The notes below the pieces were generated by a model. That model saw nothing but the letters and a program-made list of their open reading frames with translations. It ran no database searches and was not told the origin of the DNA. A program made the translations under genes and the position numbers. A DNA stretch of 64,000 nucleotides from an uncultured Candidatus Saccharibacteria bacterium. Lineage in GTDB: Bacteria; Patescibacteriota; Saccharimonadia; Saccharimonadales; Saccharimonadaceae. Every line of letters starts with the position of its first letter. The first letter of the stretch is position 1. The stretch covers positions 1,200 to 65,199 of the forward strand of contig CAMJLE010000002.1 of assembly GCA_946406665.1 (NCBI GenBank), written 5' to 3'. Below are positions 41,986 through 53,820 of this stretch, piece after piece.

Positions 41986-42666
41986 ATGAAGGTAAGTGAT
42001 TTAAACCCCGAATACAATAAGTTACAACGCAAGTACGGAGCAAAAGAATTAACTTCCATATACAATGGAGGGTGCACCAACAACCCCGATTATTGTTTCG
42101 TATTCATGAACCCTACAGGAAAGAACATCGCGTCAGACCCGAATTGGAAAGGGAGAAGGTCTCCGTGGATAGGGACTAAAAACATATGGAAACTGTTTCA
42201 CAGGATTGGCCTACTCGATGAAGGAATTTATGCCAGCATTATGGCTAAGAGGCCGAATGAATGGAACGAAGAGTTTGCGGATTTAGTATACGGTGACGTG
42301 GAAAAGCACAAATATTTCATAACGAATCTGGGGAAATGCACCCAGGTCGACGCAAGAGTGTTGCCAAATTCGGTCTATGTCCAATATCTAGACTTGTTGC
42401 GCAAGGAAATAGAAATAATAAACCCGAAAGTTATTATTGCGTTCGGGAACCAAGTTAGTTCGGTCTTGTCTGGCAATGCCATTTCAGTGTCAAAATGCAG
42501 AAAGCAGAGCTTCCCGATGGAAGTTGCTGGTAAAACATATGACGTTTATCCAGTTTTCTATCCAATAGGCAACGGCATGATGAACATCGATAAAGCCGTA
42601 GAGGACTTGGAATTTATCATAAAAAATACCGAGAAAAGATTGGCGCCTTCTAGCGCGTTGATTTAA
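41986..42666 (+). CDS. Uracil-DNA glycosylase superfamily-like protein
   Basis: 226 aa. FMNPTG and a late FYPIGNG resemble UDG-superfamily motifs A and B. Weak, from memory. Confidence 0.4.
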   Translation: MKVSDLNPEYNKLQRKYGAKELTSIYNGGCTNNPDYCFVFMNPTGKNIASDPNWKGRRSPWIGTKNIWKLFHRIGLLDEGIYASIMAKRPNEWNEEFADLVYGDVEKHKYFITNLGKCTQVDARVLPNSVYVQYLDLLRKEIEIINPKVIIAFGNQVSSVLSGNAISVSKCRKQSFPMEVAGKTYDVYPVFYPIGNGMMNIDKAVEDLEFIIKNTEKRLAPSSALI

Positions 42667-42684
42667 TAGCACCAATTTAGTGCG

Positions 42685-43269
42685 CTATTGCTCGTACAGT
42701 TTTAGGATTTTCTCGACCTCCTGTTTGGAGAGATGATCTAATTGGGTTTGATGAGAGAGCTCTAGGTTCTTGTTGCCCCAAGGCGCAGCTTTTTCGTCGT
42801 ATAGGCTCTTCGAATAAATCCAGCAATCGTACGGCAGTTTCTCGGCAGAATACTTTTCTCCCACGAAACCAAGCTTCTCGTATAGTCGGACAGCGTCAGC
42901 ATTGCCGACAATATCCGTATACAGCCTCATCGTCTTGAAGCCGCGCCGTTTTGCCATACGCATCGTTTCCTCGAGTATTCTTCTCCCATAGGATCTTCTG
43001 CGTTTGTCTGGGAGTACGCCGAACCACGCAAGCCATGCCGATTCATCATCGTAGCAATATAGGCCCGTTATCCCTATTGCTTCTCCGTTATCATATGCGA
43101 TGTAATATTTAACATAGTCGTCGATATAGTCTATTCCCGTCTTTCTTATGAAGGTATCTCTATCCAGAGACGCCAAGATATTAATAGTGCCATCTTCGTC
43201 TGGGAATATTTGGTTTTGAATCTTAATTGCTTCCTTGTAGTTTGCATGATCTACTAAGACGAGTTTCAT
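42685..43269 (-). CDS. GNAT family N-acetyltransferase
   Basis: The segment VLPDKRRRSYGRRILEE matches the acetyl-CoA binding motif, 194 aa. Confidence 0.75.
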   Translation of the reverse strand: MKLVLVDHANYKEAIKIQNQIFPDEDGTINILASLDRDTFIRKTGIDYIDDYVKYYIAYDNGEAIGITGLYCYDDESAWLAWFGVLPDKRRRSYGRRILEETMRMAKRRGFKTMRLYTDIVGNADAVRLYEKLGFVGEKYSAEKLPYDCWIYSKSLYDEKAAPWGNKNLELSHQTQLDHLSKQEVEKILKLYEQ

Positions 43270-43281
43270 AGTCTAGCTCCT

Positions 43282-44121
43282 TTATAATTCCAGAATTGGC
43301 ATTTCTTCCCTGTACCTCTTTTGCGCTTCTAAATCCAGGTCTGCCGTAAGCATACCTTCTTCGTTTCCTAGCGCTCGCAGGTTTTCGCCATCATACTTGA
43401 TGATTTTCGTGTCCGCACATAGCTTTTCGCCCGTTTGGTTAACTGCGCAAAAGTAGACTTGGTTTTCGATTGCTCTAGCTCGTGGCAGGACGTCCCAGGC
43501 TACGGCTCCAGTTGACTTGTTGAAGTGCGCTGGGAGAAAGATGATTTCGGCGCCGCCTTTGGCCAGCTCTCTAAAATACTCTGGGAATCTTAGGTCGAAA
43601 CATATGCCGACGCCAATTTTGATGCCATCTATTTCGAATAAGCCAATCGTTTGTCCCGGAATGGTATCGTCATTTTCGTCTAGCTTGAAGTCTGGCCTAT
43701 TAACTTTGTACAGATATTTTTTATCGTATCTGCCGATAATATTCCCCTCGCGATTAATCACGAAACTCGTATTCGTAGTTTTGCCTGGCACGTCACTTTC
43801 TAGAGCGACGCTTCCCAGGATGATATTTACATGGTTTTCTCGAGCGAAATCTTGGTACTTTGCTATTTCGTCTAGCCTCACCGCCCCGCCATAATAGTCT
43901 TTACCCCACGACAGGAATAATTCGGAAAGACATATGATATCGGGCGAGTCTTTGACGGCCTCGCTCAATCGGCCGAGGACTTTTTGTTCGTTCTCGTTTT
44001 TCGTGCCGTTGGATTCTGTTTGGATAAGACTTACTCTGACCATAGATTTGTGCTCTGATGGAATTATAGCATCGATTATCGGCGCGCCGAAAGCGTGGTG
44101 ACTACTTATTAACGCACTCAT
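43282..44121 (-). CDS. Carbon-nitrogen hydrolase (nitrilase superfamily)
   Basis: ICLSELF (Glu) and GICFDLRFPE (Cys) motifs. The start may instead be the ATG at 44043 (MVRVSLIQ). Confidence 0.75.
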   Translation of the reverse strand: MSALISSHHAFGAPIIDAIIPSEHKSMVRVSLIQTESNGTKNENEQKVLGRLSEAVKDSPDIICLSELFLSWGKDYYGGAVRLDEIAKYQDFARENHVNIILGSVALESDVPGKTTNTSFVINREGNIIGRYDKKYLYKVNRPDFKLDENDDTIPGQTIGLFEIDGIKIGVGICFDLRFPEYFRELAKGGAEIIFLPAHFNKSTGAVAWDVLPRARAIENQVYFCAVNQTGEKLCADTKIIKYDGENLRALGNEEGMLTADLDLEAQKRYREEMPILEL

Positions 44122-44252
44122 GCTTTATTAAAATCGTTTTTATTGGTTTGATTGATATGTGTTGGCTCGTTTCGTAACACATAAGGTTCGCCTCGCGGGG
44201 GCCTTATAGAACGATGTTCTAGGCGCCATCAAGACTCCCGAGAAAGGGAAAA

Positions 44253-44315
44253 ATGAGTATACAACTGCGCGTGTGGCGCGTGAGAGTTATGCTCACGTTG
44301 AAGTTTGCGAAGTAA
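44253..44315 (+). CDS. Cassette copy 4 small ORF, 20 aa (MSIQLRVWRVRVMLTLKFAK)
   Basis: SD GAGAAAGGG lies upstream. The peptide is a paralog of the sORFs at 47555, 47872 and 48176, with shared residues encoded by different codons. Confidence 0.45.
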   Translation: MSIQLRVWRVRVMLTLKFAK

Positions 44316-44384
44316 CGGAAGATCCGTCCTAAATTAGGACGGATCAACCAACACATCAATACGCTTCCTAGAGGCGTATTATAT
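44316..44384 (-). ncRNA. Predicted antisense sRNA of cassette copy 4
   Basis: Minus-strand TGATATAAT (complement of 44391-99), hairpin AATACGC/GCGTATT (44358-80) and hairpin GATCCGTCC/GGACGGATC (44321-45). The ends are approximate. Confidence 0.35.
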
Positions 44385-44396
44385 GGTTTTATTATA

Positions 44397-44921
44397 TCAT
44401 GGCGCTTTGACTGCCTTAGCGATGACGCTAACAATTTCTTGGCGGGACATTTTTTCGGGGTTGCGGAAACGCGCAAGCGGGATGTTGGCGGCTTTAAAAA
44501 TGCGCTCGACTTCCGCGTCGCGCTCGGCGCGAGATTTGCTGTCGTGCGAGGCATCGTCGAGCTCAATGGCACAGACTGGCTTGCCGGTTTCCTTGCTGAG
44601 CAAAACGTAGTCGACGGACTTGCCGTTAATGTGACGGAAGGCAGCGTTCCAATTCTGGCCTTTGACTTTGTGGTTTAGCAAGGCGGAAAGATGAACTTGT
44701 GGAATGATATACCATTTACCGCCGAGCATGTCGTTGAGTTGCTTGAAGAATTCGTTTTCGCGTTGCGTCATAATGTAGCTCTTGGCGAAATAACGGTAGG
44801 TAGATTTTTTGATTTCTTCTTCGTCGTCGGTTTGCTTTACGGCGAAGAGCTTGCGCGAAGCGAAGTCCGCTGCGACGAGAATGACTAGAGCGATGATGAT
44901 AATGATGTATGTTTTATCCAT
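44397..44921 (-). CDS. DUF2726 (restriction-endonuclease-like fold) protein with N-terminal TM
   Basis: YIIPQVHLSALL...SVDYVLL...VCAIELDDASHD...RDAEVERIF. Confidence 0.65.
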   Translation of the reverse strand: MDKTYIIIIIALVILVAADFASRKLFAVKQTDDEEEIKKSTYRYFAKSYIMTQRENEFFKQLNDMLGGKWYIIPQVHLSALLNHKVKGQNWNAAFRHINGKSVDYVLLSKETGKPVCAIELDDASHDSKSRAERDAEVERIFKAANIPLARFRNPEKMSRQEIVSVIAKAVKAP

Positions 44922-44938
44922 GATTCTATATTATCTCC

Positions 44939-46036
44939 TTATTTATCGCTTTTTCTACGATTGCAATCTCGGCAAAGCATTTGGCAGTTTTCAGCAACAG
45001 TTTTACCGCCTTGGCTCCATGGCGTAATATGGTCGGCTTCCATCTCGTCGATTTCGAAGTGTTGGTTGCATTCAGAGCAAATTCCCCGCTGGCGTTCGTA
45101 AGCCTCGCGCTTCATGTTGTCTGTAAATGCACGAATGCTTAAATGACGTTCGTCGCCACATAACAGGTATTCGTAGATGCCCTTCTTGGCAGTAACATCC
45201 TCGTCCTGCATGAGGCGGATGATTTCTTTTTCCATTTTCTGAGCATCGTAGGAATAATTATGGTATTTATTATAGAAGTCGCCCCATTCGAGGCCTTTCA
45301 TTTCTTTGCGATAATTCGGGAACAGCATTTGTGCCCATGCGATGACGGTCTGGAAATATTGCCAAAGTTCGGAGGCATTATCGTCGAACTGGTGCTTAGA
45401 CATATATTCTTCAATGTTGTCGTCGGAAATCCATTTCAAAGCAGATTGTAAATAGTCCTGGCGAATCGGCGAACCATTCATGTATTTTTCGGCTAGTCCA
45501 TAGGCGGCGCAGCCAGTTTTGCTAAAGTGGCGCTTAGCGTCAGTTAGCCATGGGCCGGCATAGACCGCGTTGCGAAGTTCCTGATCGGTAAGCTTTTCGC
45601 CGGCGATATTGATAGTCTTGAACCATTCGAGTTTTTCGCTGTCTGTACCGTCGCAAATGTAGATATATAAATCGTAGTTTTCAATTTGTGCACGTTCATC
45701 AGAAGTGAGGCTGTGAAAATATTTGTTGTTGATGGAGAAATCGCCCTGCACGTATTGGCAGAAAGAAATCGTACGCTGCTGGCCGTCGAGAATTTCGTAA
45801 CCAGTCACCTCCCCACTGTCATTTTTAACGACGGACCAATACATAACATTGAGCGGGAATTCTTTGCGAATAGTATCAATTACGGCATTTCGCTGAGCAT
45901 CTTTATATACGAATTCGCGTTGGAATTTTGGGCGGATGTCGAGCCTACCGCCGTAGCCAACAACGCCTTCTTCATTGCCGTCTTTATAGCCATCAAATAC
46001 ATCTTTGATTTTGATTTTTTGAAGCTCAATTTTCAT
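44939..46036 (-). CDS. DUF262 (ParB-like, DGQQR) + C-terminal HNH nuclease, GmrSD-related
   Basis: ILDGQQRTISF in the N-domain and CSECN...ADHITPWSQGG...NCQMLCRDCNRRKSDK in the HNH domain. Overlaps the methyltransferase stop by 11 nt. Confidence 0.8.
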   Translation of the reverse strand: MKIELQKIKIKDVFDGYKDGNEEGVVGYGGRLDIRPKFQREFVYKDAQRNAVIDTIRKEFPLNVMYWSVVKNDSGEVTGYEILDGQQRTISFCQYVQGDFSINNKYFHSLTSDERAQIENYDLYIYICDGTDSEKLEWFKTINIAGEKLTDQELRNAVYAGPWLTDAKRHFSKTGCAAYGLAEKYMNGSPIRQDYLQSALKWISDDNIEEYMSKHQFDDNASELWQYFQTVIAWAQMLFPNYRKEMKGLEWGDFYNKYHNYSYDAQKMEKEIIRLMQDEDVTAKKGIYEYLLCGDERHLSIRAFTDNMKREAYERQRGICSECNQHFEIDEMEADHITPWSQGGKTVAENCQMLCRDCNRRKSDK

Positions 46037-47093
46037 GGATTCTCCTTTTTATAAAAATACGCGAAAATACAACTACTGGAAGATTATTATCGTCCAATAG
46101 ATATACATTTTGTAATCGCCAAGTTTTATTGTATGCTTTATACTTTTTTATAGTTTCTTCAGGGGGTGGCGTGAAAAAAGAACAATCATTAAACACCCAA
46201 TTCGTGTCGCCGCTTCTTCCAATTATCTCAAACTGGTCAGGATCATAACTATTTATAAAGCTGTCTGGTACGCCCATGTAACCATAATAATCATCAGGAA
46301 TATCGGCTATCCTATCTATATTAATTGCATTAAAGTTACCGTATTTAGGATAATCACTCGGATTATAGTGTTTATAGAGTATTAGCCCTTCATGCCGCTT
46401 TTCAATATCTAGATTCGTAAACCATATGACGTTCCCGAATTTTTTCGTGGTTCCATCGGGGCGCATAAACTCTTTTATGTGGTTATATCCAAGCCAAACT
46501 TTATTATTAGCAATTAATGGAAATATTTCTTGATAATGGAGTTTATTAGAGTCGCCGATTGTTAAGAACTTCTTATCATATTCTATAAGTTGTAGGATAT
46601 AGTCTGGGAATAGGCTAAAGGGCGGGTTAGTAACGACAATATCAGCCTCTTTAAGATACTCGATTGATTCTTCACTTCTAAAGTCACCGTCGCCGTCAAG
46701 TATTGTAAGGTTATTATCATTGCTTTTAAGCAGAAGTTCGATATCCGAGAGATCTGTTGCTCCATCGCCATTTAGATCTGGGACTTCGGTTATTTCTATT
46801 TTGTAGGGTAATTTCTCGTCTTTATGGAATAACGGCAAATCATTAAATTCCGTATAGCTAACTGGCGATCCGGCATAGCACGTACAGATTAGCTTTTTTA
46901 AGCCAAGATGATTAAAATTCATAGCAAAATATTTGAAGAAATTACTCTCAAATGGATCGTCGCAATTGCAAAATACGGTTTTACCTCTGAAGTGTTCTTT
47001 ATAATGGCATAATTCGTTTTCTATGTCTCTTAGAAAGGTATAGTGCTCATCGTCTTTTGCTACTTTTGCCTTTCCTAGGCTAGTGTTGGCTAT
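46026..47093 (-). CDS. N6-adenine DNA methyltransferase, EcoRI-methylase-like family; apparent ATA start
   Basis: VVTNPPFSL motif IV. The frame is open upstream of the track's ATG (46922): (ATA)ANTSLGKAKVAKDDEHYTFLRDIENELCHYKEHFRGKTVFCNCDDPFESNFFKYFAMNFNHLGLKK matches my memory of the family N-terminus. AGGAGG lies 4 nt before ATA (complement of 47091-93) and an in-frame TAA lies at 47109-11. Confidence 0.7.
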   Translation of the reverse strand: MANTSLGKAKVAKDDEHYTFLRDIENELCHYKEHFRGKTVFCNCDDPFESNFFKYFAMNFNHLGLKKLICTCYAGSPVSYTEFNDLPLFHKDEKLPYKIEITEVPDLNGDGATDLSDIELLLKSNDNNLTILDGDGDFRSEESIEYLKEADIVVTNPPFSLFPDYILQLIEYDKKFLTIGDSNKLHYQEIFPLIANNKVWLGYNHIKEFMRPDGTTKKFGNVIWFTNLDIEKRHEGLILYKHYNPSDYPKYGNFNAINIDRIADIPDDYYGYMGVPDSFINSYDPDQFEIIGRSGDTNWVFNDCSFFTPPPEETIKKYKAYNKTWRLQNVYLLDDNNLPVVVFSRIFIKRRIHEN

Positions 47094-47124
47094 GGCGCCT
47101 CCTAACTCTTAGCGCCACAACTTC

Positions 47125-47349
47125 AAAAAGAAAATAAGACACCTTGCGATGTCTTGTTCAATATATGTTGCCGATTACATCATGAATCCGGGAACGTAAC
47201 ACCGCATGATGTCTTAAATCAATTTCTGCACTTAGACTGAAACAGCCTAACCGGAGCGATGAACCTTCCCGGATTTACGGGTTGTTTCAAAACACTGCCG
47301 CAAGTGCAGAATTGTAGCCTAAGTGCAAATTATTAAATTGATTTAAGAC
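47125..47349 (-). ncRNA. Structured ~225-nt leader/ncRNA upstream of the methyltransferase, with own promoter and terminator
   Basis: Minus-strand TGATATAAT (complement of 47356-64). A 15-bp helix (47211-25 with 47335-49) plus a 9-bp helix (47227-35 with 47319-27) enclose a multi-stem domain. The terminator is AAGACATC-GCAA-GGTGTCTT plus ATTTTCTTTTT (47125-55). The G-U pairs fit only the minus-strand RNA. Confidence 0.45.
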
Positions 47350-47554
47350 AATTTAATTATATCACTTAGGGACAGGGGTTGAGAAGTGTTCTGTTTGAAC
47401 TCATGCTTTTATGCCGTTCTGAGTTCTCCTATACTAAAAAGGCGCCGCAAGGTGTCTTAAATCAATGGTTTAAACTGACATTGAAGTTCATGAGAGCTCG
47501 CAGGGCTTCAATAAACAGGATTCTAGATAACTAGACACTCTGAGGAAGATTGTC

Positions 47555-47614
47555 ATGGTCATCACAGTTCGACTTTGGATTGTGGAATTCAGAATAAGAA
47601 TCAGGTTTGTTTAG
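47555..47614 (+). CDS. Cassette copy 1 small ORF, 19 aa (MVITVRLWIVEFRIRIRFV)
   Basis: SD GAGGAAG lies 6 nt upstream. There is codon-level conservation with copy 3. Confidence 0.5.
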   Translation: MVITVRLWIVEFRIRIRFV

Positions 47615-47618
47615 AGAT

Positions 47619-47688
47619 GAAAAATAACCCATAGGGGTTATCTTTCATCAAAACCATTTCGAGCGTAGTTTCTAGAGCTGCGCTCAAT
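47619..47688 (-). ncRNA. Predicted antisense sRNA of cassette copy 1
   Basis: Minus-strand TGCTATAAT (complement of 47695-703), hairpin GAGCGCAGCTCTAGAAACTACGCTC, and terminator ATAACCCC-TAT-GGGTTAT plus TTTTT. Confidence 0.4.
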
Positions 47689-47871
47689 AAGTATATTATA
47701 GCAAAAGCATTAAACTTACGCTTTTGCTTCTAGTTAATTAGGCATATTGTCTTTGAGGGTACGTGTTTTGCCCTATTGAATGTTTTAGCCATAAGCCATT
47801 GGAGGCCAGCTCGCTGGGGCTTCAATGAACGGTGATTCTAGATAGCTAGAGGTCCCGGAGAAAGTCTTTGC

Positions 47872-47952
47872 ATGAGCGTTCGGATTACCATCATGGGCGT
47901 AAGTGTGGAGTTTGGAATTCGGTTTCCGAAATTCAAAAAAATTCGTCGCTAA
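47872..47952 (+). CDS. Cassette copy 2 small ORF, 26 aa (MSVRITIMGVSVEFGIRFPKFKKIRR)
   Basis: SD GGAGAAAG lies upstream. The C-terminus IRF.K.KKIRR parallels copy 3 (IRLVRKPKKVSR). Confidence 0.5.
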   Translation: MSVRITIMGVSVEFGIRFPKFKKIRR

Positions 47953-48006
47953 ATAAATAACGACGAACCAAACACGTCGAGTGTAGTTTCTAGAACTGCG
48001 CTCGTT
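47934..48006 (-). ncRNA. Predicted antisense sRNA of cassette copy 2
   Basis: Minus-strand TGATATAAT (complement of 48013-21), hairpin GAGCGCAGTTCTAGAAACTACACTC, and terminator TTCGTCG..CGACGAA plus TTTTTTT, which overlaps the last sORF codons. Confidence 0.4.
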
Positions 48007-48175
48007 GAATATATTATATCAAATAATTGAACTCATGCTTTTATGAGTGAAATCTAAACATTAATATGTGAACGGGTTATTTTGGCATCGCGTGAGGCTC
48101 GGAGAGAACTCTCGCTCGCAGGAGCCTCACTGAACGGTGATTCTAGATAGCTAGACGCTCCTGAGAAAGATTCAG

Positions 48176-48259
48176 ATGTCACTCACTTTCAGGATTTGGA
48201 TTGTGGAGTTGAGGTCCGAAATTCGCTTGGTGCGGAAGCCAAAAAAAGTTAGCCGCTAG
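48176..48259 (+). CDS. Cassette copy 3 small ORF, 27 aa (MSLTFRIWIVELRSEIRLVRKPKKVSR)
   Basis: GAGAAAG lies 6 nt upstream. The stop codon sits inside the terminator hairpin of the antisense RNA. Confidence 0.5.
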   Translation: MSLTFRIWIVELRSEIRLVRKPKKVSR

Positions 48260-48307
48260 CGGCTAACCAAACCCAAACAGAGCGTAGTTTCTAGAGCTGC
48301 GCTCGTT
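48241..48307 (-). ncRNA. Predicted antisense sRNA of cassette copy 3
   Basis: Minus-strand TGATATAAT (complement of 48314-22, abutting the permease stop codon), hairpin GAGCGCAGCTCTAGAAACTACGCTC, and terminator GTTAGCCGCTAGCGGCTAAC plus TTTTTTT. Confidence 0.4.
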
Positions 48308-48324
48308 GGATATATTATATCACG

Positions 48325-49104
48325 CTACTCGACATTCACGCCTTTACTAAACAGTTTCTTACCACCGAAGTACAAGCCGGTTGTCAGCACGAGATACAAT
48401 GCATCAGTTACGGCAATGAGCGTGCGGTAGGTCGAGAAGCCGATTGCAACATCCATCGCGTCGCCAAACATGGCTTTGACACTATCGTCAAAAATGCCAA
48501 TTCCGTAAATGATGCCGAGCAGCAAGCTCTGCAGAGTGAAATATAACACTATGCCAAGAACCGCCGAACGAATCATGCGGCCATTATTTGCGCGATGACC
48601 AACGGTAAGGCTAAACATGCCAACATTCACGGCGTAAACTACTTCCAAGACAGCCGTAACGAGAATCCCGAGAACAATAAATGTCATATCGCCATCTTTG
48701 AAGACCGAGCGAAAATACTCATACATATCATTGTTCCAAAATGCAATAAAGAAACAAGTAATCACGACGGCGAGAGATAATAAAATGGCACAGAGTCCAG
48801 AAAGAACTTTGCTATCGTAGAGCGTATTTTTGCTTACTGGTAGCGTATGCGTCAAATATGCTTCGTCTTTATAGAAACTTTGGCGGAAACGTTCCCATAT
48901 TCGAATTGCCGAATTAATGACAGCATTAGCGAAAGCTGCAATCGTAAAACCACGCAAAATGCCAAAGACGAGATCACCAATTACGGAGCCCGTAAAGTTG
49001 CTGGAAATGCGAGTGAGGATAGATAGAATAGCCGTAATAGCAAAAATTACAACCATGTTACGATTCATCCACAGGAAGTCGTATTTAATTAGCTTTTTTA
49101 GCAT
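48325..49104 (-). CDS. ABC transporter permease-like membrane protein
   Basis: About 6 TMs. Start taken at MLKKLIKYDF (ATG 49104), overlapping the ATPase gene's end by 20 nt. Confidence 0.6.
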   Translation of the reverse strand: MLKKLIKYDFLWMNRNMVVIFAITAILSILTRISSNFTGSVIGDLVFGILRGFTIAAFANAVINSAIRIWERFRQSFYKDEAYLTHTLPVSKNTLYDSKVLSGLCAILLSLAVVITCFFIAFWNNDMYEYFRSVFKDGDMTFIVLGILVTAVLEVVYAVNVGMFSLTVGHRANNGRMIRSAVLGIVLYFTLQSLLLGIIYGIGIFDDSVKAMFGDAMDVAIGFSTYRTLIAVTDALYLVLTTGLYFGGKKLFSKGVNVE

Positions 49105-49792
49105 GGAACATCCTCCTAAATATTTCATCGATTGATGCTTTTTCTTTACTGCGAAGTTTGTCAGCATCGCTAGTTAGCGCAATTTTACCTTTATCGATGA
49201 AGATTACCTCATCGAGGATGCGCTCGATATCAGATATTAGATGCGTGGATATAATTACACTGGAGCCTTCTTTGAAATTGGACAAGATTGTATCGAGAAT
49301 ATAATCGCGCGTGGCAGGGTCGACGCCGCCAAGCGGCTCGTCCAAAATATACAGATCCGCGGCGCGCGACATTACCAAAATCAGCTGTAGTTTTTCTTGC
49401 ATACCCTTAGACATTTTGGATATTTTTGAGTCTGCATCGAGATCTAAATCTTCGAGCAATTTATATGCGCGATCCAGGTCGAAATCCTCATAGAAATCTT
49501 CGAACATTTTAATCGCTTGGCTGACCCGCATATTTTTGTCCAAATATGTGCGTTCAGGCAAGTACGAAATGTGCGCCTTCGATGGGGCGCCGATAGCCTT
49601 CCTTTTGAATAAAATCGTGCCGTCGGTTGGTGTGAGTAAATCGTTAATTAACTTTATTAGCGTTGTTTTGCCGGCACCATTTTTGCCGAGCAGACCGTAA
49701 ATTTTGCCGGGCTCAATTTTGAGACTAACGTCGTCGAGTACGGTTTTACGGTCGAATGTTTTCGTGAGATGTTTGCATTCTAGCAAAGTCAT
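49085..49792 (-). CDS. ABC transporter ATP-binding protein
   Basis: Walker A GKNGAGKTT, signature MSKGMQEKL, Walker B LYILDEP. Confidence 0.9.
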   Translation of the reverse strand: MTLLECKHLTKTFDRKTVLDDVSLKIEPGKIYGLLGKNGAGKTTLIKLINDLLTPTDGTILFKRKAIGAPSKAHISYLPERTYLDKNMRVSQAIKMFEDFYEDFDLDRAYKLLEDLDLDADSKISKMSKGMQEKLQLILVMSRAADLYILDEPLGGVDPATRDYILDTILSNFKEGSSVIISTHLISDIERILDEVIFIDKGKIALTSDADKLRSKEKASIDEIFRRMFHAKKAN

Positions 49793-50154
49793 CTGCCGCC
49801 TCCTATTTCTTGCAAGGTATTAATTGCTTCTTCGAAAGTGACGCCGATTTTTTGCGCTTCGGCAAGATAGGCTTTGGCCGCAGCGACTGCGAGTTGCTTC
49901 TTGTATTTCGCAATCAGCTTTTGATCTTCAGTGACGAATTTACCGTTCGTGCGCTCGGTAAAAATCAGCTGCTGGTCTTCAAGTTCTTGAAGAGCTTTTT
50001 GCATTGTGTTGGGGTTAACTCGCGCCTGGCTGGCCAATTCGCGCACAGACGGGAGTCGACTTCCCGCCGCGTACTGTCCCGACACAATCATCAGCCGCAA
50101 CTGCTCTACCAGTTGAAGATAGATTGGTCTTTCGTTGTCGAAAACGAATTGAAT
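49789..50154 (-). CDS. GntR family (YtrA-subfamily) transcriptional regulator; apparent ATT start
   Basis: The wHTH segment is LPSVRELASQARVNPNTMQKAL. The frame is open upstream of the track's TTG (50100) and encodes (I)QFVFDNERPIYLQLVEQL, the expected YtrA N-terminus. GAAAGGA lies 5 nt before ATT (complement of 50152-54). Confidence 0.7.
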   Translation of the reverse strand: MQFVFDNERPIYLQLVEQLRLMIVSGQYAAGSRLPSVRELASQARVNPNTMQKALQELEDQQLIFTERTNGKFVTEDQKLIAKYKKQLAVAAAKAYLAEAQKIGVTFEEAINTLQEIGGGR

Positions 50155-50220
50155 AAGCGTCCTTTCTATTGTATTACTTGCTTAATACAATAATACATAG
50201 TAGATGCTTATTCGTAAATA

Positions 50221-52023
50221 CTATTTGTTGTTCTTCGTATACGCTTCGATGAAACTTTTTAGTTTCTCGCCATTCAGCTTCACAAAATCTTCGTAGCTCT
50301 TCTCTGCTATAGCATCCGTCAAGAACTTTTGGTCCGCTTCATCAAGTTTGTCCGAACCTCGAAGCTGCTCGGAAATACAGTAAAGCAGATATGCTAGGCT
50401 GGCATTTTTATTTTCGCCATCTCCGAGTTTTACGACATGCTCAATCTCGTGGCTGGTGTCGGCAAGCGGTTCTTTATAGCGAAGCTTGATTGTGCAGAGT
50501 TCGTCCGAATCATTCACTACGGCAGTTTGATATTTGAACTCGCCGCCCGTAGCGGAGCCGTCGTTCATAGTTAGCTCATATAGCGCAATACCATGACCGC
50601 CGCTACCATATGGCTCGGAAATGACTGTATCGTTTTTGAAATCTTCGTGATTGAGTTCGCGATTTTCGTAGCCGAGCAAACGATATTCCTTGACAAACTT
50701 TGGATTGAATTCGACCTGAGCTTTGACGTCTTTGGCAATAATATTAGTTAGGCTTTCATAGCGTTTGTCGATGGACTCGGACACGTCTTCGAGACTATTG
50801 ACGACACAGTAAGTTCCATTACCATGTTTGGCTAGAACTTCGAGTTTTTCGTCCTGATAATTCCATAGGCCCGTGCCGATGACGGAAAGAAATAGACTTT
50901 CTTTTTTCTTTTCTTCGATGAGTTTTTCGAGGCCGCCTTTGTCGGTGATGCCGAAATTGAGGTCGCCGTCCGTAATGAGAATAACTTGATTGTTCCAGGC
51001 GGCGTCGTAATTATGCTTGCCAATCTCGTATGCCGTCTCGATGCCCTTGGAGCCATAAGTGCCGCCATTAATCAGGAGAGTTAGTACTTTGCCCATAATG
51101 TATTCTTTGTCGTAGCCTGAGCGGATGGCGTAATTTTTGAGCACCGTTTCATCTACGGAGCTATACGTAACTAGGCTAAATATATCGCCAACCTTAAGCT
51201 TGCTCACAATAACCGCAATAGATTGCTGCGTAACTTCTGTATTGCGACTCATGCTGCCAGAAACATCGAGCAATAGAATAATGTTTTGGTGTTCTTTGAT
51301 TTCGGATTTGGCCTGCGCGTTAATATATAGCAGTTTTTTAGTATCGCTCTTGTCCAGAATCTCGGTGCTAATATTAAACGTATCTTGCTTTGGTTTTGGG
51401 TTATCGTAATCAAAATAATTGAGCAATTCTTCAATGCGAACTTGCGATAAATCTACGTCGCGGCCATTGCGAATTTGGTTCATGACAACACCCATAGATG
51501 CGGTCGTGGTGGTCATGCGGAAAGTGGAAGTTGGCGCCGCAAATACGCCTTTAGCATCTTTTTCCTCAATGGGCGCGTAAGAGTCTGTGGAAATATTTTC
51601 CATAAACCCATCCGGTAAATCCTCAGAAAAACTCATGCGAATAGCCATTGACGCACCCACCTCCACCATAGCGCCATCTTCCGGCTCGCTCACTTTGGCG
51701 CGCCCCTTGCTCGCGCTCTTAGCAACGCTAGCTAGGCGGATACTGCTGTTTGGAATGTTGTCGTAATTGTATCTTCTGGTTGAGTATTTTTCGTAGATGC
51801 GCCGAACAGCCACGTCGATATCATCATCACCGACAAAGTCGTAAATTTTAGCCAGCAAGTTTTCCTCGCCAAGTTCTTTGAAAAATTTATTCACGGTTCG
51901 ATTATTGCCATAAGTAAAACAGGACAGGACGCTAGCGGCTTCTTCGGAATAGCCCAAGCCAGCATAGAAATCATACTTCTGCTTGAGTTTGGCGGTGTTT
52001 TTGATAGAGTCTTTTAATGCCAT
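50221..52023 (-). CDS. von Willebrand factor type A domain protein (YfbK-like)
   Basis: 600 aa with the MIDAS motif LLLDVSGSMS and a conserved C-terminal region like YfbK-type proteins. Confidence 0.75.
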   Translation of the reverse strand: MALKDSIKNTAKLKQKYDFYAGLGYSEEAASVLSCFTYGNNRTVNKFFKELGEENLLAKIYDFVGDDDIDVAVRRIYEKYSTRRYNYDNIPNSSIRLASVAKSASKGRAKVSEPEDGAMVEVGASMAIRMSFSEDLPDGFMENISTDSYAPIEEKDAKGVFAAPTSTFRMTTTTASMGVVMNQIRNGRDVDLSQVRIEELLNYFDYDNPKPKQDTFNISTEILDKSDTKKLLYINAQAKSEIKEHQNIILLLDVSGSMSRNTEVTQQSIAVIVSKLKVGDIFSLVTYSSVDETVLKNYAIRSGYDKEYIMGKVLTLLINGGTYGSKGIETAYEIGKHNYDAAWNNQVILITDGDLNFGITDKGGLEKLIEEKKKESLFLSVIGTGLWNYQDEKLEVLAKHGNGTYCVVNSLEDVSESIDKRYESLTNIIAKDVKAQVEFNPKFVKEYRLLGYENRELNHEDFKNDTVISEPYGSGGHGIALYELTMNDGSATGGEFKYQTAVVNDSDELCTIKLRYKEPLADTSHEIEHVVKLGDGENKNASLAYLLYCISEQLRGSDKLDEADQKFLTDAIAEKSYEDFVKLNGEKLKSFIEAYTKNNK

Positions 52024-52618: not shown

Positions 52619-52818
52619 CCTCGCGAGTGGGAACAAAAAAGTGGGCTTGGTTGCTACCCGACGGCTGCAAGCCGCCCTTCTTCTCTTTATCGTATTTACG
52701 CAATTCTACCTTTTCTGCCCATCTAGTAATTGTATCTTTAACTTCCGCGCAACAAAAGCGTGAGTTTATTCCGACCGACGCGATGCTCCCGCTTGGCGCT
52801 AGGTGTTATAATACAGAT

Positions 52819-53820
52819 ATGGCAATCGAGAGGGTGATTGATACTAGTCTCCACGAAGACGACAGCGATGAGCGAGCCGTTGAGTTTTCGCTACGCCCCA
52901 CAAACTTCAATGAATATATCGGCCAGCGACGCCTGAAAACTAACTTAAAGCTAGCTATCGATGCGGCAAAGAAACGCGGCGACGTGATGGATCACGTATT
53001 GCTATTCGGGCCTCCAGGACTTGGAAAAACGACTATGGCTGGCGTAATTGCACATGAAATGGGGGCGAATTTTCGGGCTACTTCTGCTCCATCGATTGAA
53101 AAAGCAGGCGATTTAGCAAGTATTCTAACAAACTTAGCCGATGGTGACATATTATTTATTGACGAAATTCATCGCTTGCGGCGTGCGGTTGAGGAAATCC
53201 TCTATTCGGCAATGGAGGATTATAAGCTTGATATCGTGATCGGTAAAGGACCGGCTGCGCGAAGCGTCAAGCTCGACCTACCGCGCTTTACATTAATCGG
53301 TGCCACTACGCAGGCCGGAAATCTCGCTGGACCGCTGCGTGACCGTTTTGGGCATTCCTATAGATTAGAGTATTATGCAAATGATGATATCCAACAAATA
53401 ATAGAACGCTCGGCAAGTATTCTAAACACGTCGATTGACTCAACGGCCTCTAAGCTGCTGGCGGAACGTTCGCGTTTGACGCCACGCATCGCAAACAGAC
53501 TGCTAAAGCGTGTACGCGATTACGCCGACGTAAATGGCGATGGAATAATTGACGAGCCGATTGCGAGGAGTGCTCTAAAAATGTTGGAAATCGACGATTT
53601 AGGTCTGGATCCGGCTGATCGCAATATGCTCACTTTAATGTACGAAAAATATGGCGACAGGCCGGTTGGGCTAAATACAATTGCGGCTTTAACTGGCGAT
53701 GAGGCTTCGACGATCGAGGATTATTTGGAACCTTTCTTGGTGCAAATGGGAATGATCCAACGCACGCCACGCGGCCGCATCGTAACGGACGTAGCGAAGA
53801 ATCATCTTGGCCTCGTTTAG
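52819..53820 (+). CDS. ruvB: Holliday junction branch migration helicase RuvB
   Basis: MAIERV..., LLFGPPGLGKTT, ILFIDEIHRL. TGTTATAAT at 52804-12 lies 6 nt before the ATG, so the mRNA is possibly leaderless. The track ORF's upstream extension is rejected. Confidence 0.95.
   Translation: MAIERVIDTSLHEDDSDERAVEFSLRPTNFNEYIGQRRLKTNLKLAIDAAKKRGDVMDHVLLFGPPGLGKTTMAGVIAHEMGANFRATSAPSIEKAGDLASILTNLADGDILFIDEIHRLRRAVEEILYSAMEDYKLDIVIGKGPAARSVKLDLPRFTLIGATTQAGNLAGPLRDRFGHSYRLEYYANDDIQQIIERSASILNTSIDSTASKLLAERSRLTPRIANRLLKRVRDYADVNGDGIIDEPIARSALKMLEIDDLGLDPADRNMLTLMYEKYGDRPVGLNTIAALTGDEASTIEDYLEPFLVQMGMIQRTPRGRIVTDVAKNHLGLV

Follow-up and report, generated by a model that had tools for sequence, protein, structure and literature searches.

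A type I toxin–antitoxin-like cassette family of Saccharibacteria that probably flanks an exchangeable restriction–modification slot

We analyse a 64,000-nucleotide stretch (the window) of contig CAMJLE010000002.1 from an uncultured Candidatus Saccharibacteria bacterium (assembly GCA_946406665.1), which contains four copies of a small cassette and, between the fourth copy and the other three, a group of restriction–modification (R-M) genes. Copy 4 is probably a functional-looking paralog, of subfamily D2, of a Saccharibacteria-specific cassette that resembles a type I toxin–antitoxin (TA) module, and the cassettes probably flank a slot in which R-M systems are exchanged. The cassette itself probably represents an undescribed type I TA family of Saccharibacteria with an unusual type of peptide. 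This reading is carried by the homology of the copies, their common architecture, purifying selection on the small open reading frame (ORF), covariation in both RNAs, synteny in relatives, and a recombination mosaic. Copy 4, its parts, and the other three copies are positioned in the window as follows (UTR, untranslated region; SD, Shine–Dalgarno sequence).

44136-44405, plus strand: cassette copy 4 (subfamily D2), with a 5′ UTR, a small ORF, two hairpins, and an antisense promoter at the 3′ edge
44181-86/44202-07, plus strand: 5′ stem-loop ATAAGG/CCTTAT around GCCTCGCGGGGG, with the invariant CTCGC motif, read from the sequence
44208-23, plus strand: AGAACGATGTTCTAGG, read from the sequence
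44217-44229, plus strand: leader CTAG patch TTCTAGGCGCCAT, possible secondary target of the antisense RNA loop; CTAG is kept in all leaders
44240-44248, plus strand: SD GAGAAAGGG; across the cassettes, GAGRAAG is kept at 6-7 nt before the start codon
44253-44315, plus strand (ATG at 44253; stop ends at 44315): small ORF of 20 aa, MSIQLRVWRVRVMLTLKFAK, putative toxin, with orthologs in L047 and L049
44321-29/44337-45, minus strand: hairpin GATCCGTCC/GGACGGATC, predicted antisense RNA terminator from sequence and fold
44358-64/44374-80, strand unassigned: hairpin AATACGC/GCGTATT with loop TTCCTAGAG, which folds on both strands across the family
44391-44399, minus strand: ATTATATCA, which is the minus-strand extended -10 TGATATAAT, predicted antisense RNA promoter
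44312-44384, minus strand: predicted antisense RNA of ~70 nt with inferred ends, comprising a 5′ hairpin with a CUAG loop, a linker, and a terminator hairpin
47446-47714, plus strand: cassette copy 1 (subfamily A), peptide MVITVRLWIVEFRIRIRFV
47756-48032, plus strand: cassette copy 2 (subfamily B), peptide MSVRITIMGVSVEFGIRFPKFKKIRR
48057-48334, plus strand: cassette copy 3 (subfamily C), peptide MSLTFRIWIVELRSEIRLVRKPKKVSR

Re-reading of the window sequence finds every part of copy 4 that the first-pass annotation had listed, in its place, and the codon differences it had described between the copies are also as stated (AGT versus TCA or AGC; CGC versus AGG or CGA). The four cassettes can be aligned end to end, with their parts in identical order and orientation. 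The composite pattern TTCTAG-N(130-160)-TTYCTAGAR-N16-TATTATA has exactly four matches in the window, which are the four cassettes, and shuffles expect 0.00. An nhmmer profile built from copies 1-3 alone recovers 44158-44400 with E=3.3e-7 and nearly the whole model aligned, and its next match in the window reaches only E=0.32. A profile of 37 cassettes from many genomes recovers copy 4 with E=3.7e-34 and detects no fifth cassette in the 64-kb window. Therefore, copy 4 is homologous to copies 1-3 and has the same orientation, as had been proposed. The annotation had further noticed that, in copies 3 and 4, the antisense -10 element abuts the upstream minus-strand gene at its stop codon. This holds for both: in copy 4, the element overlaps TCA at 44397-99, the stop codon of the DUF2726 ORF, and in copy 3 it is separated by 2 nt from the permease stop codon.

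The cassette is found solely in Candidatus Saccharibacteria/Nanosyncoccaceae, both in metagenome-assembled genomes (MAGs) and in metagenome contigs. The composite pattern scan of species-representative genomes yields 20 loci, which we then filtered with nhmmer; 10 of them, and likewise about half of the metagenome matches, are chance matches in unrelated taxa. Relatives' loci from genome and metagenome contigs are labelled L004-L049. Sources of the cassette-bearing MAGs include horse faeces and goat omasum, and the proteins that flank the cassettes in Saccharibacteria MAGs are 91-98% identical to their counterparts in the window, which places the window in Saccharibacteria as well. On viral contigs, the pattern has 13 matches, and nhmmer accepts 0 of them as cassettes. 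In total, there are 45 distinct copies, 37 of them full-length, which are solitary or form tandem arrays of 2-4. A cassette spans ~270 bp and consists of a structured 5′ UTR, an ORF of 19-27 aa, a minus-strand extended -10, and a predicted antisense RNA of ~70 nt. Five peptide subfamilies (A, B, C, D1, and D2; D1 peptide, MSVCIKLWIVRVTLSIDVTKRKKVARR) recur across genomes in varying order, A-B-C in the window and D1-C-B-A in L013, and the identity between copies is about 66%. A divergent cassette in a low-GC (0.36) organism (L040:235-527 and L041:630-828) keeps the RNA layout and encodes an unrelated peptide, MIQIGLFIINRTKQDDEPKKKVTKP. No match to Rfam is obtained for the whole window at the gathering threshold, and a search of both strands of 43900-48500 with E up to 10 gives chance-level matches alone (E>=3.8). 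Literature searches returned no paper in which type I TA systems are mentioned together with Saccharibacteria, Patescibacteria, or TM7.

The cassettes decay asymmetrically. The seven internal partial copies have, without exception, kept the antisense half, and they are devoid of the leader or the SD. One A copy, in L013, has a stop codon in place of Trp8 (TGG to TGA) next to an intact antisense gene, and none of the full cassettes is without a plausible antisense promoter. The sparing of the antisense half fits the logic of a TA module. Cassettes with a dead toxin and intact antisense are located at L013:1610-1894, L043:13802-14092, L049:6324-6614, and L024:3773-4069; their lesions are the Trp8 TGG-to-TGA change, a small deletion that removes the SD, or a replaced leader.

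Substitution patterns indicate that the small ORF is coding and under purifying selection. Within subfamilies, the ratio of nonsynonymous to synonymous change (pN/pS) is 0.36 in the ORF frame, compared with 0.80 and 2.40 in the other two frames, and the spacing between the SD (GAGRAAG or GGAG) and the start codon is fixed. Copy 4 differs from its ortholog in L047 (peptide MSIQLRVWRMKIVLTLMFVK) with pS of 0.64 and pN of 0.145. Scans of the peptides against Pfam and NCBIfam with E up to 10 give no match. Exact look-up of the B, C, D1, and D2 peptides and a B variant finds all of them absent from 15 billion predicted proteins, indicating that the family has been entirely overlooked by annotation. 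The peptides are cationic (+3 to +7 in most), charged throughout, and have a mean hydrophobicity of 0.08-0.64. Amphipathic helices have a hydrophobic moment that peaks near 100 degrees. The moment of the cassette peptides peaks at 160-170 degrees, which is the periodicity of a β strand, and is low (0.10-0.41) at 100 degrees. The alternation of hydrophobic and charged residues is kept in the five subfamilies despite heavy nucleotide divergence.

The conserved inter-cassette motif TTGAACTCATGCTTTT contains a -35-like TTGAAC and no consistent -10. The motif (T)TGAACTCATGCTTTT is present ~75 nt upstream of the CTCGC of each cassette in the window (47397-47412, 47713-47728, 48027-48042, and 44113-44128); the divergent CN-hydrolase gene has its start codon in the CAT of the copy 4 motif. 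The motif may belong to the promoter that drives the peptide mRNA.

On the opposite strand, the sequence predicts an antisense gene that has its own promoter and terminator and is complementary to the peptide mRNA, as in type I systems. Minus-strand TGnTATAAT at the 3′ edge of the cassette is near-invariant, with variation at the n position and in the flanks; the exceptions among full cassettes are CGATATAAT, TGATACAAT, and TGCTAAAAT. Next come a CUAG-loop hairpin, a G/U-rich linker, and a second hairpin with a U-run. All seven pairs of the 5′ hairpin show compensatory changes, 91.8% of cells are paired (29-41% with a slid partner), and 0 of 500 shuffles attain the observed covariation score. 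CUAG is present in the loop of every antisense 5′ hairpin, and fits the YUNR loop motif that is common to many antisense RNAs. The predicted antisense RNA of copy 4 folds at -32.2 kcal/mol (z=-7.19). A terminator scan calls the second hairpin as a minus-strand terminator in copies 2 and 3, and in subfamilies B and C this terminator overlaps the final codons of the ORF. The CTAG-loop hairpin pairs on both strands (224 and 236 of 264 cells) and is terminator-like on the plus strand; a strand preference at one pair, G-U on the sense against C-A on the antisense strand, is balanced out at another pair. The same hairpin is probably also the 3′ stem-loop of the peptide mRNA.

The leader of the mRNA contains a second covarying helix, in which the bases after the invariant CTCGC pair with the bases just 5′ of the SD. 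Compensatory changes are seen in 5 of its 7 pairs, and 0 of 500 shuffles attain the score. In most cassettes, the bases that follow CTCGC have a complementary partner on either side, the upstream one forming the ATAAGG/CCTTAT stem; in copy 4, the 3′ strand of this stem alternatively pairs with CTCCCG just upstream of the SD. Because the central segment is complementary to both sides, the leader can probably switch between two folds.

The first-pass annotation had argued that the leader patch and the 3′ hairpin patch of copy 4 changed together, as expected if they pair in trans. This co-change is not maintained: the L047 ortholog of copy 4 has CTAGGCT in the leader and CTAGAGGCG in the hairpin. 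RNAduplex energies of whole leaders are -19.4 for cognate and -19.3 and -19.0 for non-cognate combinations (mean z against shuffles, -0.68), and a short-window matrix of leader–antisense duplexes across the family has no diagonal. Since cognate and non-cognate energies do not differ and the diagonal is missing, we do not accept the co-variation argument for trans pairing. Complementarity between the leader and the 3′ hairpin, centred on the palindromic CTAG, is universal, with 7-10 bp and a 2-nt bulge, and does not cover the start codon. In L040, the leader and the antisense hairpin form 14 contiguous pairs, with wobble-compatible differences. Leader–antisense pairing in trans is therefore a possible, secondary contact.

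The genes between copy 4 and the three-copy array constitute a predicted type II R-M system together with a DUF2726 gene, so that the block is bracketed by cassettes, as the first-pass annotation had held. The features of the block are as follows.

44397-44921, minus strand: DUF2726 gene (Pfam PF10881, E=4e-28), beside the D2 cassette here and in L049
44939-46036, minus strand: type II restriction endonuclease with DUF262/GmrSD_N and HNH domains (PADLOC REase_II, full-length, E=3.5e-145; Pfam)
46026-46922, minus strand: EcoRI-like type II adenine methyltransferase (Pfam PF13651, E=1.9e-88; PADLOC MTase_II, E=1.8e-72)
47085-47385, minus strand: conserved element of ~290 nt between the methylase gene and the array, also present at L047:9567-9852, L043:14146-14431, and L028:81-378

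The endonuclease and methylase ORFs have the same orientation and overlap by 11 nt. The block had been described as ~2.7 kb of AT-rich DNA; relative to the window mean GC of 0.458, this is correct for the methylase gene and the intergenic region (0.34-0.40), and incorrect for the DUF2726 gene (0.51) and the endonuclease gene (~0.45).

In relatives, the cassettes stand beside different cargo. Their arrays occupy a constant position in the chromosome, immediately adjoining ruvB or next to the GntR/ABC operon that also neighbours the window array. Type III Mod/Res genes border the arrays in L010, L013, L016, L018, L023, and L049. In L047, the cargo consists of a UvrD-like helicase and genes with weak Tsp45I-like and Eco57I-like matches, and a D2 cassette is located on its far side; this cassette is the ortholog of copy 4, as judged from its peptide. 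In L049, the far side of the cargo likewise carries a D2 cassette, whose leader has decayed; it is placed immediately past a DUF2726 gene 78% identical to that of the window. In L048, the stretch equivalent to window positions 41986-52023 is absent, and a single A cassette is present between a NUDIX gene and ruvB. A search for cassette-less variants among contigs encoding the same CN-hydrolase returns the same strain only. A short gap in L004 is not a deletion, and we reject it as such, because a frameshift lengthened the DUF2726 ORF.

A sister strain represented by an 8-kb contig (L027) is mosaic with respect to the window. The two sequences have 0 differences over 44131-44434, which includes cassette copy 4. 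They diverge by ~3.6% to the left of copy 4 and by ~11% over 44435-45992, which includes the DUF2726 and endonuclease genes, mostly at third codon positions and synonymously, and they have 3 differences over 45993-47159, which includes the methylase gene. One breakpoint of the mosaic is thus at the edge of copy 4, just to its right. This pattern argues that the endonuclease and DUF2726 genes have a different history from the partner methylase gene. Together, the D2 orthologs beyond different cargo in L047 and L049 and the L027 breakpoint support the suggestion that the bracketed region is a hotspot of insertion or recombination. Saccharibacteria are naturally competent and integrate DNA via homologous arms (PMC10633639), which provides a simple route for the exchange of cargo between conserved flanks.

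The ~290-nt element is conserved far above its surroundings (83% column identity). Its parts are, in order, an extended -10 (GTGWTATAAT), a stable fold, a terminator-like hairpin with a U-run, and a hairpin containing AGGAGGCGCC. The element folds at -91 kcal/mol (z=-6.2), is not matched in Rfam, and resembles a structured leader or attenuator of the R-M operon. The PF13651 match of the methylase starts at profile position 55, and 54 N-terminal positions are missing from the called gene. The methylase frame is open for ~60 codons further upstream (46923-47108, minus strand), a length that fits the missing positions, contains no ATG, GTG, or TTG there, and when extended starts with ATA directly after AGGAGGCGCC. 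At L047:9420-9580, the conserved element is joined to an unrelated methylase (blastp E=0.14; NPPY motif) that starts with ACG; the junction base and the reading frame are those of the window. These junctions suggest near-cognate start codons, or a shared leader and ribosome-binding-site platform that receives different R-M operons.

We propose a mechanism in which transcription of both RNAs, the toxicity of the peptide, the mode of silencing, and the stabilisation of the island are predicted steps. The plus-strand mRNA would have a structured 5′ UTR, with a central segment able to pair upstream or, alternatively, with the nucleotides that immediately precede the SD, and would encode a cationic peptide of 19-27 aa with β-strand amphipathicity. 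The TGnTATAAT promoter would drive an antisense RNA of ~70 nt that has a CUAG-loop hairpin at its 5′ end, carries a Rho-independent terminator of its own, and is complementary over its full length to the 3′-terminal part of the peptide mRNA. The antisense RNA would pair with the 3′ region of the mRNA, loop to loop first, and possibly also with the leader CTAG patch. Pairing would destabilise or silence the mRNA, and the peptide would be produced only when the antisense RNA falls. At the level of the locus, the slot between the tandem arrays by ruvB and the solo D2 copy a few kb away would hold differing R-M systems, and the cassettes and the ~290-nt element would serve as conserved flanks across which cargo is exchanged by homologous recombination. 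Cassettes of the addiction type may make loss of the region costly, and an addiction module that stabilises the island, as the first-pass annotation had suggested, is plausible. A more far-reaching version, in which the peptides are lineage-specific, antisense-controlled, cationic, β-amphipathic mini-peptide toxins that differ in type from the helical membrane toxins of known type I systems, and the diverged arrays form, with the leader and ribosome-binding site, a platform for R-M exchange by naturally competent epibionts that penalises its own loss, is offered tentatively and is rather doubtful as a whole. In a further variant of it, the peptides might be exported through the adjacent Pmt-like transporter and act on the host bacterium.

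Several points weigh against the TA-like reading. The peptides are not hydrophobic helices as in known type I toxins, which are usually recognised as small hydrophobic membrane peptides; because their hydrophobic moment peaks at 160-170 degrees and they are charged throughout, we treat peptide toxicity as an assumption. Both transcripts, their ends, and translation of the ORF are predictions from the sequence. A promoter scan and inspection by eye reveal no convincing sigma-70-type promoter for the predicted peptide mRNA, and the antisense terminator of copy 4 has no clear U-tract. The assignment of the CTAG-loop hairpin is ambiguous, since it folds equally well on both strands. The leader–antisense pairing is short and not cognate-specific. 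The asymmetry of decay corresponds to perhaps 4-5 independent events, bracketing by D2 is seen in three lineages only, the related genomes share ancestry, and the mosaic is known from a single strain pair.

The peptides could be exported effectors instead of, or besides, addiction toxins, because the GntR/ABC operon that abuts the array (GntR regulator, ABC ATPase, and permease by Pfam; 48325-50100, minus strand) has Pmt matches and abuts the cassettes in two different arrangements. PmtR (E=2.6e-13 for the regulator, second and level with Rv1152) and PmtA (E=2.6e-47, top match of the ATPase), proteins of the staphylococcal exporter of phenol-soluble modulins (PSMs), are among the strongest named NCBIfam matches of the operon. 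In the window, L010, L012, L018, and L024, the operon adjoins the array at its 3′ side, and in L047 and L049 it is found across the R-M cargo, adjoining D2 at its 5′ side. The peptides would then be amphipathic effectors similar to PSMs or leaderless bacteriocins, the operon would provide export or immunity, and the antisense RNA would tune production. Peptides that are short, cationic, and amphipathic, have no signal peptide, and come in tandem sets would suit such a role, as would the CAAX/CPBP protease that adjoins the transporter in L047. However, the Pmt matches are far under the curated cut-offs (161 bits against 350; 50 against 200), the operon type is very common, and no such operon is in view at L007, L020, L021, L032, L048, or the arrays directly beside ruvB. 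PSMs are α-helical, and the moment peak of the cassette peptides departs from the ~100 degrees of α-helical PSMs. Moreover, a convergent antisense RNA for each ORF and antisense-sparing decay are typical of TA loci, not of PSM or bacteriocin operons. We consider the effector explanation unlikely on balance.

The RNA features are better conserved than the peptide, both RNA structures covary, partial copies retain the antisense gene alone, and the L040 cassette combines the RNA layout with an unrelated peptide, all of which would be accounted for if the small ORF were incidental and the cassettes were repeated genes for small RNAs, terminators, or regulatory elements. An incidental ORF would not be expected to show the synonymous excess confined to its own frame, the fixed spacing of SD and start codon, or the hydrophobic/charged alternation kept in five subfamilies, and an RNA-only product is thus very unlikely. 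We regard as still harder to credit that the cassettes are mobile or site-specific recombination units, similar to miniature inverted-repeat transposable elements or integron cassettes, and that transposition or integration brought the R-M block. Repeated same-orientation copies at the junctions of variable DNA, a subfamily order that differs between genomes, and an L028 cassette beside an rve-family transposase would be consistent with mobility. In opposition, no integrase or transposase is present in or beside the window arrays or at most loci, and no cassette is present on viral contigs. The cassette alignment, in which no dedicated search was made, reveals no terminal inverted repeats, target-site duplications, or attC-like sites. 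The ~66% identity between copies is too low for recent transposition, and the L027 mosaic looks like homologous recombination. We favour the reading of the cassettes as TA-like modules that flank the R-M slot.

Among known type I systems, the closest in layout is Fst/par (pAD1 RNA I/RNA II; fst-Sm/srSm). The fst-Sm/srSm locus of Streptococcus mutans spans 318 nt and yields an mRNA of ~200 nt and a small RNA of ~70 nt (PMC3543317). Like Fst/par, the cassettes are compact intergenic modules (~300 bp) in which a ~200-nt mRNA carries a small ORF and a cis-encoded RNA of ~70 nt converges on the 3′ end of that ORF from a -10-only promoter; both RNAs and the promoter are predictions in our case. Also common to both are a position in variable or island DNA, terminator hairpins lying between the two genes, and a short direct repeat of the 5′ leader with predicted complementarity to the antisense RNA. 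In contrast to Fst/par, the cassettes have two separate hairpins instead of one shared bidirectional terminator, and their leader repeat, which is short, does not cover the start codon but lies 20-35 nt before it. The motif that marks the hydrophobic segment of Fst, APUU(A/V)GUU (PMC3543317), is absent from all five peptide subfamilies, which form no hydrophobic helix. The cassettes also lack an Rfam or Pfam match and reside in a different host phylum, Saccharibacteria. Fst, like TisB, is a plain hydrophobic helix.

In txpA/RatA and bsrG/SR4 of Bacillus, the antitoxin RNA and the toxin mRNA overlap at the 3′ end of the latter, which is expected to trigger degradation of the mRNA, and SR4 in addition alters the structure around the SD. 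The cassettes have the same 3′-end overlap, and their switchable leader parallels the effect of SR4 at the SD. They differ in having no Rfam match down to E=10, another type of peptide, and tandem arrays of diverged subfamilies, which the Bacillus loci are not known to form. The toxins of the enterobacterial ldr/rdl, ibs/sib, and zor/orz systems are hydrophobic helices, and their antisense RNAs overlap the coding region or the 5′ UTR. As in those systems, diverged chromosomal copies lie adjacent to one another, each with an antisense RNA, and vary between strains in number and completeness; the enterobacterial systems are not known to frame an exchangeable R-M slot.

Defence islands and integration hotspots combine variable R-M systems with TA genes. 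The locus described here resembles them in that different R-M types occur at one position between conserved flanks, with TA-like genes alongside. It is distinguished by the nature of the flanks, which are small cassettes and the ~290-nt leader element, by the predicted promoter and ribosome-binding site with which that element supplies unrelated methylase genes, and by its host, a naturally competent epibiont with a reduced genome. With staphylococcal PSM/Pmt, the cassettes share sets of peptides of ~20-27 aa without a signal sequence and a GntR/ABC operon with PmtR and PmtA matches, but the peptides have β instead of α periodicity, each ORF has its own antisense RNA, and the Pmt matches are under the family cut-offs.

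The ruvB ORF of the window, as listed, extends over 52627-53820 (plus strand) with a GTG start and encodes 397 aa. Its 5′ end is probably over-extended; orthologs align from about residue 60 only, and their ORFs encode 332-333 aa.

If the cassettes are true TA modules, they would add a family from a new phylum with unusual peptide chemistry, and would offer a small, testable case of RNA-based regulation in reduced genomes. They would also define a locus near ruvB at which epibionts exchange restriction systems. Such a locus would be relevant to phage defence, to the barriers to genetic manipulation in Saccharibacteria, and to strain-level diversity of their methylomes, and its conserved flanks could double as landing pads for engineering.

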